From a virus (lineage: Duplodnaviria; Heunggongvirae; Uroviricota; Caudoviricetes): a stretch of DNA of 64,000 bases. The stretch lies in the IMG/VR virus record IMGVR_UViG_2703718817_000003, one strand, 5' to 3'. Below are positions 4,257 to 34,617 of the stretch, in pieces (the stretch's first letter is position 1; each line of letters starts with the position of its first letter). Below the pieces are notes generated by a model. The model searched no databases, was not told where the DNA came from, and was given only the letters and a program-made list of their open reading frames with translations. Made by a program: the position numbers and the translations under genes.

Positions 4257-4305
4257 GCCACTACCTATTCGAACAGATGAACGAGATTTGATGCATACTC
4301 ACGGT

Positions 4306-30778: not shown

Positions 30779-32476
30779 GTGAACAAGAACATTGAGCCAG
30801 CTCGTAAGCGCGAGCGCGAGATTATGAATCGGGCGGCAAGCGTCATGGCTATGACCGTCGATCCAACCACTGATGCTGCCGGTAACATGATTGCCGACAA
30901 CGAAGTGATGATGGCTAACCTGGAAAAAGCTATCCAGAAAGAGCCTATGTTTGAAGGCGTTGAACCAGAAGCAGCTCGCCAGATCATTGGTAGCTGGGCC
31001 ATGTCTATTCATGAATACAAACGCCAGTATGGGCATTATCCGGCAAGCGATGTATTAGCCAACGCCCATGTAGCACTTGAGCGCCTGATGATGGAGTCCG
31101 CTAAAGAGACTCATGAAGGCGCTGGCAAAGCCATGTTTGAATCAGTAGCCAAGGACATGCGCACCTCCGATGGTGTAATGAAGGTTGCACAATATGCCGC
31201 ACTGATCCTGCCTGCTTCTCTCGGCGCAGCCACCAGCGACGCATGTACGTTTATCCCTTGTGATCGTGATGAAACCAATATTTACGAGCTGACCAACGTT
31301 GCTGGTACAAAATTCGGTACATTCGAGCAGGGCGATGAACTGAACATGCAGTCTGCTGGAGTGTATTCGCAGATGAAACGCCTGTACATCCTGACCGAAA
31401 AAGGAGATGGCAGCAAAACCACCTTCCAGTTTGATATCCAGAACTTCGAAGGCCAGGCCTGCCCACTGCGCCAGGGCTACAACAAACTGCTGATTAACCG
31501 CAAACCGTCCAAAGTAGATGATGGTGACGGCAACCTGTATTTCAACGACAAAGACGTCAACGGCAACTCTTTCTCTGTGACGGCAAAGGTTCGATACGAT
31601 ACCGGCGTTATCGATATCACCTTTAATGAAGCACCAGCAGAAGGCACAGAAATCGCTGTTCAGGTTGAAATCAACATTGAACGCAATCCGAACCTGATAC
31701 CTGTCATTAACCAGTCCATGCGCAATTACGCCCTGCGCCCGTCGGAGTACGTGATCGCATCCGAACATACGGTTATGGCTGCATCTGACCTGAGCCGTGA
31801 ACACGGACTCGAACTGGCAGCATTGCAATTCTCTGCAATGCGCAACTGGATTTCCCACGAAATCGATATGATGCGCCTGCGCACTCTGGTATTCCACACC
31901 GTTTACGGTCGTGAATTTGATGTGGCACTGCCAGAAGCGCAGAACTACGAGTCGTGGGTTGGTTTAATTCGCCATGTTGTGAACGCGCTGTCACAGGAGA
32001 TGGCTGACCGCACCCTGACTACCGGTATCCGTGGTGGCTTTGCTGGTGGCGATGCTGCTAACTTCCTGCGTTCCTTACCGCCGCAGCACTTCCAGTTGGC
32101 ACCGGGCTATGTACAGTCGCCGTACATTCAATACATCGGCACCCTGTTTGGTTCCATTCGTATCTACGAAGTGCCGAAGCCTATCTGCAAACAATTCCAG
32201 AAATATGGCTACGACTTCGGCCTGGACGACATCTATTTCTATGGTCGTGGCGAAGGCATTGGTAAAGCAGGCCTGGTCGCAGGTGATGCTGTGCCTGCTA
32301 TTCCGTATGTCCACGAAACAAATCCAGCCCTGGTGAACCGCACCACTTTCTGGGGCAAAGCAATCAACGATGTGCATCCGCGCAACGGTGAGAACTATTT
32401 CACTCGCCTTCGCCTGACACGTTCGAAAGAAGGTGCGATTGACATGTTGAGCGGGCAAATCAACGAAAAAAAGTAG
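30779..32476 (+). CDS. putative major head (capsid) protein precursor
   Basis: 565 aa (~62 kDa) with helical N-terminal ~120 aa (delta/scaffold-like) followed by large beta-rich body; immediately upstream of sheath-like gene; start GTG 30779 or ATG 30824. Confidence 0.45.
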   Translation: MNKNIEPARKREREIMNRAASVMAMTVDPTTDAAGNMIADNEVMMANLEKAIQKEPMFEGVEPEAARQIIGSWAMSIHEYKRQYGHYPASDVLANAHVALERLMMESAKETHEGAGKAMFESVAKDMRTSDGVMKVAQYAALILPASLGAATSDACTFIPCDRDETNIYELTNVAGTKFGTFEQGDELNMQSAGVYSQMKRLYILTEKGDGSKTTFQFDIQNFEGQACPLRQGYNKLLINRKPSKVDDGDGNLYFNDKDVNGNSFSVTAKVRYDTGVIDITFNEAPAEGTEIAVQVEINIERNPNLIPVINQSMRNYALRPSEYVIASEHTVMAASDLSREHGLELAALQFSAMRNWISHEIDMMRLRTLVFHTVYGREFDVALPEAQNYESWVGLIRHVVNALSQEMADRTLTTGIRGGFAGGDAANFLRSLPPQHFQLAPGYVQSPYIQYIGTLFGSIRIYEVPKPICKQFQKYGYDFGLDDIYFYGRGEGIGKAGLVAGDAVPAIPYVHETNPALVNRTTFWGKAINDVHPRNGENYFTRLRLTRSKEGAIDMLSGQINEKK

Positions 32477-32580
32477 CAGTGGCGAACGTGTCAGTTTCAC
32501 CAACGGCAATTGAAGTAAACGAAGGTGAAACTATCGCCGCGAGCACTTCAAAGACACGAAAAACACCCAAAAAGAAGTAA
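32467..32580 (+). other. candidate -1 programmed frameshift site (A_AAA_AAG) and 35-codon -1 frame extension encoding start of an Ig-like (Big_2) domain
   Basis: Heptamer A AAA AAG at last two codons of head gene; -1 frame reads VAVANVSVSPTAIEVNEGETIAASTSKTRKTPKKK then stops at 32578-32580. Confidence 0.4.
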
Positions 32581-32617
32581 AACCAGCCCCTGAATAGGGG
32601 GCTATATGGAGGAAAAA

Positions 32618-32896
32618 ATGGCTGATATCAAAGTAACTATTACCCCACCAAATGCGACAGATAAAACTTTCACTGTCGAATCCGATCATCCGGAAATTGT
32701 GAGAGTTGATGGAACCACATGCACCGCAGTATCTGCTGGTACTGCGGTACTAACCATCAAAACTACAGATGGAAATAAAACCGCAACGTGCACTGTAACG
32801 GTTAATGAAGCCGTAGTAAGTGTCGACTCTGTCAGCGTTGATCCGTCAACCAAAGAAGTGACGGTAGGTGACAGCTTCACGGTCGGCGAAGCCTGA
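32618..32896 (+). CDS. Big_2 (bacterial Ig-like) domain protein
   Basis: ITPPNATDKTFTVESDHPEIVRVDGTTCTAVSAGTAVLTIKTTDGNKTATCTVTV matches Big_2 pattern; GGAGGA SD before ATG 32618; alternative ATG 32606. Confidence 0.55.
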   Translation: MADIKVTITPPNATDKTFTVESDHPEIVRVDGTTCTAVSAGTAVLTIKTTDGNKTATCTVTVNEAVVSVDSVSVDPSTKEVTVGDSFTVGEA

Positions 32897-32961
32897 TAAA
32901 AGCCTCCCCATGCAAATGGGGAGGCTTCTCTCATCCGCTCGATAAAGAGGAAAAGAGCAGC

Positions 32962-34617
32962 ATGAATAAAATTGGTTTTTCTGTTGGTCAGGCTGCGGGC
33001 GTTGCGGTAGCGGACGTTAATGCCGATGCTACTCTGACTAACACATCTGGCGGTGCTTCCGTCTTTGCCGGGCTGGTCATTTCCCGCAGAGGGGCGCCAG
33101 GTAAGGTTTTGCAGGTTACAGCAGCCAACTATCAGAGCGTGTTAGGTTCACCTCTTCACCCGCGCACCGGGGCCGCATTTGAACCATATCGCCACGTTGA
33201 ACGCGCAGTAAAAGGCGGCAGCGGTTATGTGGTTCGCGTATGCGCAAAAGACATGAAAGTACCGGGCATTGCCGTTTCTGTTCAGGCCAAGTCGAAAAGC
33301 ACTAAGTCTGCAAAAACTCTGCAAATTGCTCCGACCGAAGCAACGGTAAACATCGGCGATACACTGACCGTTCGTGCCGTTTCTGGTGCCACTTCTACGG
33401 TAACTTTCGCTGCAAGCGAAACACCTGAAATTTCCGGCAGTGAACTGGCTATTTTCTACATAAAGGACGGTGATGCTTCGACAAACCGCACGTTATCACT
33501 GACCCGTGAGGACGAAGAAAATGACCTGTTCACTCTGGAACTGAAAGAGACACAGACCGATGGTTCTGTAGAAACTCTGGAAAGCTACCAGGTTTCTTTC
33601 GATCCGGATGCAACGAACGATATGGGCCAGCCAGCATGGATTCCTGCGTTGTTAGAAAGTCAGTCCACCAGGCTTGGAGCTGTACTGGCTGATGGTGCCG
33701 AAGACTCCGCTCACTTGCTGACTTTCGAAGATGTAGCGTTTGAAGGCGGTACAGATGGCGATCTGTCCTCAATTGACGCTGATGATTATCTGAAAGCGTT
33801 AGAGGTTCTCGAAGCGTCAGAAGTTAATTATACCGCGCTGCTTTCTCTGGGCTGCTACGACGCATCCGTGCTGGCAAAAATCAATTCGCTGGCAGAAGAC
33901 GTTCGCGTGGATATGTTCTACGACCTGAAATGTGCTCAGACTGGTGAAAACGCTATCGCAGAAGCTAAATCACATGGTTTCGGCAAATCCCACCAGGCTG
34001 CACGTTATCACTTCCCGTACTCATGCCGTGACACTTTCAGCGGTATGAATGTGGTTTACGGAATCAGTTGCGACGCATTTGTGGCAAAAGCGAAAGGCGT
34101 TGCGCTTGTGTCTGATGTAGGCGGCTGGCATTACGCCCCGGCTGGTCTGTCTCGCGCAATCATTGATCGCCAGAACATCACCAGACTCTCCGGGATTGGC
34201 ACAATCGATCGTGAAGCGTATGTAACCGCTCGTATTAACCCTGTAAGCGTTGCAGCGGATGGTTCTGTCTACATCGACGACTCCCTGACGACATACAGCA
34301 AAAATAACCATCTGCGATTCCAGCACGTTTCATCACTGATGAATGCAATTGCCCGCAATTTCTATGAAGTTGCTCAGGCAATCAAGCATGAACCTGATGG
34401 CGTAACGCAGGAAAGTCTGACTAACGCACTGACAGATCTTCTGGACCGTTTTTATGCGGCTGGTGCGCTGGTTACACCACGCGATGAATCTCAAGGTTCA
34501 GACCCTTATGTGGTCAAGGTAACTCAAAAAGACATCGACTTGTGGGAAGTGGAATGGTCCGTGTGCCCAACAGGCACTGCTCGTCGAATCCTCGGCAAAC
34601 CAATCCTGATGCGTTGA
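32962..34617 (+). CDS. putative tail sheath protein (with Ig-like insertion)
   Basis: 551 aa (~58 kDa) following head gene, consistent with P1-like head-sheath order; internal Ig-like segment (QIAPTEATVNIGDTLTVRAVSGATSTVTF). Confidence 0.4.
   Translation: MNKIGFSVGQAAGVAVADVNADATLTNTSGGASVFAGLVISRRGAPGKVLQVTAANYQSVLGSPLHPRTGAAFEPYRHVERAVKGGSGYVVRVCAKDMKVPGIAVSVQAKSKSTKSAKTLQIAPTEATVNIGDTLTVRAVSGATSTVTFAASETPEISGSELAIFYIKDGDASTNRTLSLTREDEENDLFTLELKETQTDGSVETLESYQVSFDPDATNDMGQPAWIPALLESQSTRLGAVLADGAEDSAHLLTFEDVAFEGGTDGDLSSIDADDYLKALEVLEASEVNYTALLSLGCYDASVLAKINSLAEDVRVDMFYDLKCAQTGENAIAEAKSHGFGKSHQAARYHFPYSCRDTFSGMNVVYGISCDAFVAKAKGVALVSDVGGWHYAPAGLSRAIIDRQNITRLSGIGTIDREAYVTARINPVSVAADGSVYIDDSLTTYSKNNHLRFQHVSSLMNAIARNFYEVAQAIKHEPDGVTQESLTNALTDLLDRFYAAGALVTPRDESQGSDPYVVKVTQKDIDLWEVEWSVCPTGTARRILGKPILMR

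Follow-up and report, generated by a model that had tools for sequence, protein, structure and literature searches.

We analysed a 64,000-nt stretch of tailed-phage DNA (IMG/VR record IMGVR_UViG_2703718817_000003; hereafter the window), which is a D6-like, P1-family phage-plasmid of E. coli. At the 3' end of its major capsid protein gene, a candidate −1 frameshift site leads into the first strands of an immunoglobulin (Ig)-like Big_2 domain, the remainder of which is encoded by a separate downstream gene, here called p92 (Table 1). An earlier annotation from the DNA letters alone (the sequence-only reading) had described the upstream gene as a putative head gene. Homology identified it as the major capsid protein gene: its product matches PHROG 1014 over the full length (E = 9e-214), shares 87% amino acid identity with the 'major capsid protein' of Escherichia phage D6 and 44% with P1 gp23, and aligns to the solved structure of P1 Gp23 (PDB 9ukm) with E = 1e-164. 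The genes following 3' encode, in order, the sheath, PmgG, the tube and PmgC. Megablast of the window against phages returned no match because D6 is only ~77% identical in DNA, so that protein-level comparison was needed. An E. coli plasmid shares 98% identity with the region 32000-33100. At least 80% of this 1.1-kb query is covered by 119 plasmids in PLSDB (from Escherichia, Salmonella and Shigella), with capsid, Ig-like and tail protein annotation. Among public sequences, the closest relative seen is a metagenome contig (SKEN01000208.1, L097), whose capsid protein matches the window's at 100% identity. P1, for its part, lacks a decoration protein (PMC9024508, PMC12810830).

The capsid gene ends in ATC AAC GAA AAA AAG TAG, with the zero-frame stop (TAG, 32474-76) directly abutting the heptamer A_AAA_AAG, the only X_XXY_YYZ heptamer in slippery phase within the gene. 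As AAAAAAG is common in the window (17 occurrences on the plus and 10 on the minus strand), the significance of the heptamer rests on its phase, position and conservation, not on its occurrence. Entered at 32473, the −1 frame reads VAVANVSVSPTAIEVNEGETIAASTSKTRKTPKKK, that is 35 codons up to TAA (32578-80); upstream, this frame is closed by a TGA at 32440, only 33 nt away. All three frames are closed within 32578-32597, by the same TAA, a TGA (32591-93) and a TAG (32595-97). On the phase of the last two sense codons, the 35 further codons and the triple closure, the sequence agrees with what had been noted before. The predicted frameshift junction is ...NEKK/V(M/A)VANVSVSP..., with the tryptic peptide VMVANVSVSPTSLDVDEGETIAANTSK, or VAVANVSVSPTAIEVNEGETIAASTSK in the window type.

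A predicted frameshift-stimulating stem-loop lies just downstream. Its 7-bp lower stem, GUGGCGA (32479-85) paired with UCGCCGC (32534-40), begins 5 nt past the heptamer and is invariant, while the upper part varies among lineages. Folding of single sequences gave z = −3.2 to −4.0 in four out of five lineages, and comparison with Rfam produced nothing near any gathering score. The slip site is also flanked by a 12-nt inverted repeat (CTGACACGTTCG and CGAACGTGTCAG, 32414-32425 and 32483-32494) that overlaps the lower stem; it is perfect in the window's lineage only; D6 has four mismatches and E. fergusonii has one. A direct repeat (32456-70 and 32549-63) was set aside as A-rich and probably due to chance.

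Table 1. Features at the capsid-p92-sheath locus, in window coordinates.
Feature	Position	Strand	Basis
Major capsid protein gene, 565 aa	30779..32476	+	Homolog of P1 gp23 and D6 major capsid protein
Slippery heptamer A_AAA_AAG, X_XXY_YYZ phase	32467..32473	+	Sequence
First 24 codons of −1 extension, VAVANVSVSPTAIEVNEGETIAAS (capsid tag): Big_2 strands A, A' and start of B	32473..32544	+	Profile, coding signature
Predicted frameshift-stimulating stem-loop	32479..32540	+	Consensus fold
Lys-rich tail TSKTRKTPKKK and stop TAA (32578-80)	32545..32580	+	Sequence
Intergenic hairpin AGCCCC-TGAATAG-GGGGCT, between extension and p92	32585..32603	+	Sequence, consensus fold
p92, 92-aa Ig-like protein: Big_2 strands B to G and C-terminal tag	32618..32896	+	Shine-Dalgarno sequence GGAGG 32608-12, ATG 32618
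p92 C-terminal tag, VDSVSVDPSTKEVTVGDSFTVGEA: A-A' strands of a 'next' domain	32822..32893	+	A-A' model, 27.9 bits
Hairpin 3' of p92 (arms 32894-32911 and 32916-32933)	32894..32933	+	Inverted repeat I1, 18 nt, 89% complementary
Tail sheath insertion, sheath aa 108-145 (gene 32962..34617)	33283..33396	+	Comparison of lineages
Tag-like motif KTLQIAPTEATVNIGDTLTVRAV in sheath insertion	33313-33381	+	A-A' model

The sequence-only reading had placed the rest of the domain in a separate open reading frame (ORF) with a strong Shine-Dalgarno (SD) sequence, and p92 is indeed preceded by one; an earlier ATG at 32606 overlaps this SD and is not conserved. The p92 protein matches Pfam Big_2 (PF02368) with 28.8 bits (cut-off 22.8), but covers only positions 22-79 of 79. 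Its relatives in three other lineages (L036, L038 and L140) show the same partial coverage, starting at position 22-23 in all those tested. Joining the capsid extension to p92 extended the coverage from 22-79 to 1-79 and raised the score from 27-28 to 35-36 bits; the join uses the first 21 residues of the extension and the p92 body, for a gain of ~8 bits (~10 bits in D6). With a shuffled extension or an unrelated capsid segment as controls, position 1 was not reached. In alignments with a crystal structure and with intact Big_2 domains from other phages, the joined sequence showed no interruption. Complementarily, 863 unrelated tandem Ig repeats were used to build a model of Big_2 strands A-A' (22 positions), which reached a top score of 9.6 bits in ~1.0 million residues of control six-frame translation. 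The capsid extension scored 18.8 bits, the second-best match in the window. Both earlier suggestions, that the extension resembles the first strand of a Big_2 domain and that it forms one such domain with the next ORF, are consistent with these results. By itself, the extension amounts to Big_2 positions 1-21, that is strands A-A', and not to a complete Ig-like domain.

This arrangement recurs in 30 D6-type loci (19 haplotypes). It is found in phage D6, in the six plasmid loci read out of the 119 in PLSDB, and in 22 IMG/VR contigs as well as metagenome contigs; a scan of genome contigs yielded a single partial locus. Each of the 30 loci carries the heptamer, an adjacent stop and a 92-aa Ig ORF. 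The heptamer is invariant, while the stop (TAG, TGA or TAA) and the codons upstream vary. The −1 ORF spans 35 codons in every locus except the IMG/VR contig L021 (~4260-4300), where a 1-nt indel in an A-run of the tail gives a 41-aa extension that ends in the hairpin loop, reflecting either a homopolymer sequencing error or a natural variant. In a Shigella dysenteriae plasmid (NZ_CP026808, L005 768-851), substitutions that abolish the predicted fold occur together with unusual changes, E to K and A to V in the capsid tag and V to C in p92; this variant may represent decay in a Shigella lineage.

Nucleotide conservation of the extension (0.86-0.89) equals that of the capsid gene and exceeds that of p92, and its variable columns are distributed 10/5/16 over codon positions 1/2/3. 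The ratio of nonsynonymous to synonymous divergence (pN/pS) is 0.51 in the −1 frame versus 1.4-1.6 in the other two frames, and 0.20 for p92. Synonymous divergence is lower in the extension than in the Ig ORF (pS 0.21 versus 0.54) because of the invariant stem. A sequencing or assembly artefact, or a recently broken gene, has nothing in its favor beyond the split itself; against it stand the identical layout in independent isolates, plasmids and metagenomes and the purifying selection on both halves, and we consider its likelihood negligible. The sequencing artefact that had been raised as an option before is excluded, the layout being the same in D6, plasmids, IMG/VR and metagenome contigs.

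More distant relatives place the split in a wider series. In L038 (78% capsid identity) and L138 (an Enterobacter hormaechei contig), A_AAA_AAG is followed by a −1 ORF, VGVTGVSVSSDGQELSEGDSF(A/V)IE, then a hairpin and a 92-aa p92 relative; L140 and L141 (~70% capsid identity, estimated and not over the full length) likewise carry A_AAA_AAG and then a tag. In each of these four, the heptamer sits at the end of the capsid gene and the −1 frame encodes a diverged A-A' tag. The basic tail is present in the D6-type loci and L141 and absent from L038, L138 and L140, and is hence not a conserved part of the extension. In L036 (72%) and L139, by contrast, the tag is in frame and thus on every capsid subunit; a hairpin and a separately encoded p92 relative come next. 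Immediately ahead of the capsid stop, these two carry an A6G run (ACC AAA AAA GAT; L036 4268-4291, L139 ~2440-2460) that is out of slippery phase and may be a relic of the frameshift site. The split is thus kept down to ~70% capsid identity and in at least six lineages, with either a frameshifted (D6, L038, L138, L140, L141) or an in-frame tag (L036, L139), and the Big_2 A-A' pattern persists in the tags even though they have diverged to ~40% identity.

An intact fusion, for which homologous head genes had been proposed as the place to look, was found in L056 and L057 (51-53% capsid identity): a complete Big_2 domain (55.9 bits, profile 2-79) is fused in frame right after the codons ATC GAA AAA AAG. 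At this junction (L056 4148-4453, L057 4148-4459), a −1 slip would lead to a stop after 1-5 codons, and the heptamer could therefore yield a short, undecorated capsid form. A third arrangement is found in a sister lineage, L055, L105 and L131 (57-62%), where G_GGA_AAG and a stop are followed by a 5-6 nt spacer, a 9-11 bp hairpin and, in the −1 frame, an Ala/Lys/Asp-rich repeat of ~70-85 aa. The repeat (AKADAKAKADA..., Ala/Lys/Asp/Gln-rich; L055 4193-4470, L105 2490-2765, L131 1062-1368) gave no Pfam match, and the stem sequence shared by L055 and L105 is unlike that of L131. Finally, in P1, Citrobacter, Leclercia and L039-L054 (43-65%), the capsid gene leads straight into the sheath gene without any such module. 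The best intact tblastn match, MT838075, was discarded as an uninformative bacterial contig. Since relatives keep the split with the tag either frameshifted or in frame, it has been retained over long divergence and through a change in how the tag is attached. Sequence comparison indicates that the split is ancient and that both halves are under purifying selection. Of the earlier description as a frameshift-appended Ig-like domain that has been split, the candidate frameshift site and the split Big_2 domain therefore stand, but the notion of damage does not.

In E. coli, the classic and efficient −1 signal, known from dnaX and IS911, consists of A_AAA_AAG and a hairpin 5-6 nt further on; the heptamer suits the single tRNA-Lys of this host. 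The site at the capsid gene end shares the heptamer and the stem-loop at this distance with dnaX and IS911/IS3-type signals. It differs from them in that no conserved upstream SD-like enhancer was found, the zero-frame stop adjoins the heptamer, the stem-loop is long and irregular, and the outcome is an extension rather than a truncation. The proposed role of the heptamer as a −1 frameshift site is plausible, and its conservation in D6-type loci fits this role. Judged from these signals, ribosomal −1 frameshifting at the end of the capsid gene is very probably real.

Translation of the 35-codon ORF could alternatively start anew, by termination-reinitiation at an ATG or GTG next to the stop of the capsid gene, and would then produce a free peptide of 33-34 aa. 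D6 has TGATG at this point, a stop/start overlap, and its GenBank record lists the extension as a separate small ORF, orf50; the window has a GTG at 32479, two codons into the extension. However, there is no SD, the GTG lies inside the predicted stem, and the −1 ORF holds no ATG, GTG or TTG in L038 and L138 and a start codon only mid-tag in L141. In L038 and L138, the lack of a start codon means that frameshifting is the only way to make the tag. Reinitiation, which would also leave the invariant heptamer and the in-frame tags unexplained, thus has a very slim chance of being correct.

We regard transcriptional slippage as highly improbable, too. Addition of one A by RNA polymerase in the run of seven A (GAAAAAAAG), without any slip of the ribosome, would give the identical protein, and the indel in L021 affects another A-run of the extension. 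Yet the conserved structure at 5-nt spacing points to the ribosome, the sister-lineage site G_GGA_AAG is not a homopolymer run, and the runs for which efficient slippage in E. coli is usually reported are longer than A7. Two further candidates found no positive support. Bypassing of the T4 gene 60 type from the extension into p92 was considered because every variant has AAG-TAA at the extension end and an AAA that precedes the p92 ATG in frame by 0-1 codons; these features are ordinary for an intergenic region and expected where an SD spacer is rich in A, the gap ranges from 37 to 43 nt, and the hairpin excludes the take-off codon. A mobile-element origin of the ~80-nt interruption was not supported, the hairpin being unique in the window.

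The p92 protein is itself more than a truncated domain. Its C-terminus carries a second A-A' segment (the C-tag), which is the top match of the A-A' model in the whole window, is cut at a structural point matching that of the capsid tag, and restores Big_2 positions 2-79 when joined to the p92 body. Selection acts on this segment as well (pN/pS 0.27, pS 0.53). In an exhaustive representative search, full-length p92 aligned across a domain boundary of giant tandem Big_2 arrays. As p92 starts at strand B and runs past strand G into a second A-A', it corresponds to one repeat unit phase-shifted by two strands. An earlier homolog search had returned close relatives only; profile searching defined a family of 91-96 aa proteins, down to 43% identity, with M-[PA]-x-I-[KQ]-V-x-I-x-P-E-N-A-T at the N-terminus (strand B) and a C-terminus 3-5 residues past the C-tag motif G-[DE]-x-[FI]. 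Start and truncation point were the same in 19 out of 19 aligned relatives. No further domain able to bind a virion was found in p92.

An AlphaFold2 monomer model reached a mean predicted local distance difference test score (pLDDT) of 84 with a 19-sequence alignment and 58 with 12 close sequences. Its body superimposes on the Big_2 domain of 7quz with a root-mean-square deviation of 1.3 Å over 58 columns, and lambda gpV-C was matched as well. These data bear on the idea that p92 is a circularly permuted Ig domain completed in cis by its own C-tag, with the capsid tag serving another role or competing by strand exchange. In support, each Big_2 strand is present in p92 exactly once, in permuted order, and pLDDT is 87-90 at the C-tag residues. 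In the model, however, DSSP assigns no strand to residues 63-92, and we accordingly see no sign of the C-tag pairing with its own body. Moreover, the linker from strand G to the tag spans ~6-9 residues, whereas the start of strand A would lie at the domain's opposite end, ~35-40 Å away by general Ig-fold geometry, and the capsid and sheath tags would be left unexplained. We thus think self-completion improbable.

A third tag-like segment occurs in the tail sheath. In all lineages that carry p92, the sheath protein is enlarged at one site by ~30-48 aa (much less in L138); this insertion is absent from the relatives without p92 (P1, Leclercia, L039, L055, L056). Across lineages, the p92 ORF goes along with both the capsid tag and the sheath insertion. 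With the A-A' model, the sheath motif scored 16.5 bits in L140, 12.7 in L139, 10.1 in L036, 7.0 in the window, 4.5 in D6 and 3.5 in L141. Joined to the p92 body, it gave Big_2 coverage from position 1-4 in the window, D6, L140 and L139. Among D6-type lineages, 33271-33460 (sheath aa ~104-166) is the most variable stretch of the entire capsid-to-sheath region, with a pairwise identity of 0.56-0.68 as compared to ~0.8 elsewhere, and coincides with the insertion.

Taken together, Big_2 coverage from position 1-4 is regained with each of the three segments (capsid tag, C-tag of p92 and sheath motif), at a gain of 6-10 bits, and not with the controls. We propose that a fraction of the ribosomes on the capsid mRNA would slip by −1 at A_AAA_AAG, aided by the adjacent stop and the stem-loop, yielding a 600-aa capsid form with the 35-aa C-terminal extension. 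The p92 protein, a Big_2 body lacking strands A-A', would dock onto the tag of this minor form by beta-strand complementation, so that some of the capsid subunits would bear a fully rebuilt Ig-like domain. Its own C-tag could let units chain head to tail, and the tag-like sheath loop may recruit p92 to the tail, too. By analogy to other phage Ig-like decorations, the assumed function would be weak surface adhesion. Such docking would explain why p92 has no other binding domain, why both breakpoints lie at one structural position, why the C-tag is under selection, and why tags and body co-occur. Relying on sequence patterns and on comparison among lineages, we see even chances that p92 is completed in trans by the capsid, sheath and p92 tags. 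The fuller picture of a natural 'tag and catcher', in which donated strands attach p92 to head and sheath and units chain via the C-tag, is more tentative. A possible cap for such chains is an extra 68-aa ORF of L140 (2238-2444), located between the capsid gene and the p92 relative: it has its own SD and encodes a Big_2 body (22-79) without a C-tag, which is why it could end a chain.

Alternatively, the frameshift may be real without any interaction between tag and p92. The A-A' fragments would then be inherited remnants of a tandem Ig array, acting as linkers or lacking a role, and p92 would bind the virion otherwise or be non-structural. The split lineages may stem from one rearrangement, and pN/pS of the extension is only about 0.5, both of which would fit. 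On the other hand, the A-A' pattern is kept at ~40% identity and survives the change from frameshifted to in-frame tags, the p92 C-tag shows pN/pS of 0.27, the truncation point is the same in 19 relatives, p92 has neither a complete fold nor another binding domain, and the sheath insertion co-occurs with p92. A lack of interaction is therefore unlikely, in our estimate.

Several observations nevertheless weigh against frameshifting or docking as proposed. The orf50 annotation in D6 and the GTG in the window leave room for independent initiation in this lineage. The predicted fold is missing from the Shigella dysenteriae variant (z = −0.16), and the lower stem, which never varies, has no covariation support. 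The split lineages are probably of one origin; the comparison hence shows long-term retention, not independent invention. Further, the tags include the first half of strand B, which is also present in p92, and the fit is not a clean jigsaw. The AlphaFold2 monomer says nothing about binding in trans. The sheath motif of the window, its fourth match with the A-A' model, lies under the control maximum of 9.6 bits, as do the sheath motifs of D6 and L141 and the capsid tags of L139 (9.0) and L141 (3.1), whereas the other tags scored above it; in L036 the Pfam splice test of sheath motif and p92 body failed. While some lineages give a solid link to the sheath, the window's own lineage gives a weak one.

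Two further hairpins complete the locus. The intergenic hairpin between extension and p92 is unique in the window and shows one compensatory pair (A-U to C-G) across lineages; a terminator scan did not call it on the plus strand, and no T-tail is present there. For this hairpin (window 32585-32603; L002 5720-5745), D6 shows the same CGCCCC/GGGGCG stem as the hairpin behind P1 gene 23. It may be an ancestral post-capsid hairpin serving as mRNA stabiliser or attenuator. The second hairpin lies 3' of p92 (Table 1).

Related arrangements are known from several phages. Lactobacillus phage A2 makes its capsid proteins gp5A and gp5B with a frameshifted C-terminal extension, and Fraser et al. in 2006 reportedly surveyed frameshift-appended Ig-like domains of phages. 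The SPP1 tail tube protein gp17.1* gains an FN3 domain by frameshifting at a 3:1 ratio (PMC8718954), and capsid gene 10A/10B of T7 and K1F is extended by a −1 frameshift (PMC13370021). With these systems, the candidate site described here shares its position at the end of a major structural gene, a minor extended form that would be mixed into the virion, and an Ig-related extension. Here, in contrast, the extension would supply only ~21 of 79 profile positions, a separate gene with a ribosome-binding site of its own encodes the remainder, and the split is conserved. A complete in-frame version exists only in the more distant L056 and L057.

For the proposed docking, the closest mechanistic parallel is donor-strand complementation in chaperone-usher pili, together with engineered split Ig-like domains such as SpyTag/SpyCatcher. 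These are analogies of mechanism and not of family membership: an Ig-like fold without an edge strand receives its donor from another polypeptide. As in pili, of which Caf1/F1 is an example (PMC3708895), a subunit with its own donor segment would form chains, for which the body-only unit of L140 is a possible cap. Different from pili, it is the N-terminal strands A/A' that are missing here, not strand G at the C-terminus, and the donor is a C-terminal segment. A chaperone, an usher and isopeptide chemistry are all absent here, and a sequence relationship to either system is not expected. T4 Hoc, T5 pb10 and N4 gp17 are separately encoded Ig-like decoration proteins (PMC10385173, PMC5292684, PMC11768535) and, like p92, small Ig-like accessory proteins encoded beside head genes. 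They possess their own capsid-binding domain and complete Ig domains, whereas p92 has neither. In the literature we searched, a non-covalent, chaperone-free tag-and-catcher decoration has not been described for phages.

If the frameshift is genuine, the capsid gene is mis-annotated in widespread phage-plasmids of E. coli, Salmonella and Shigella (119 in PLSDB alone); the Prokaryotic Genome Annotation Pipeline (PGAP) leaves the extension out entirely. If docking holds as well, it would constitute a new mode of decoration attachment, in which a split Ig domain is completed across polypeptides and its dose on the capsid is set by recoding. As phage D6 is in culture, the model is directly testable. 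A short encoded tag capturing a small Ig body would, in addition, be useful for phage display and protein assembly. Overall, the C-terminus of a single capsid protein family presents a series of states, from no add-on through an in-frame Ig domain, a frameshifted Ala/Lys-rich repeat and an in-frame tag to a frameshifted tag.

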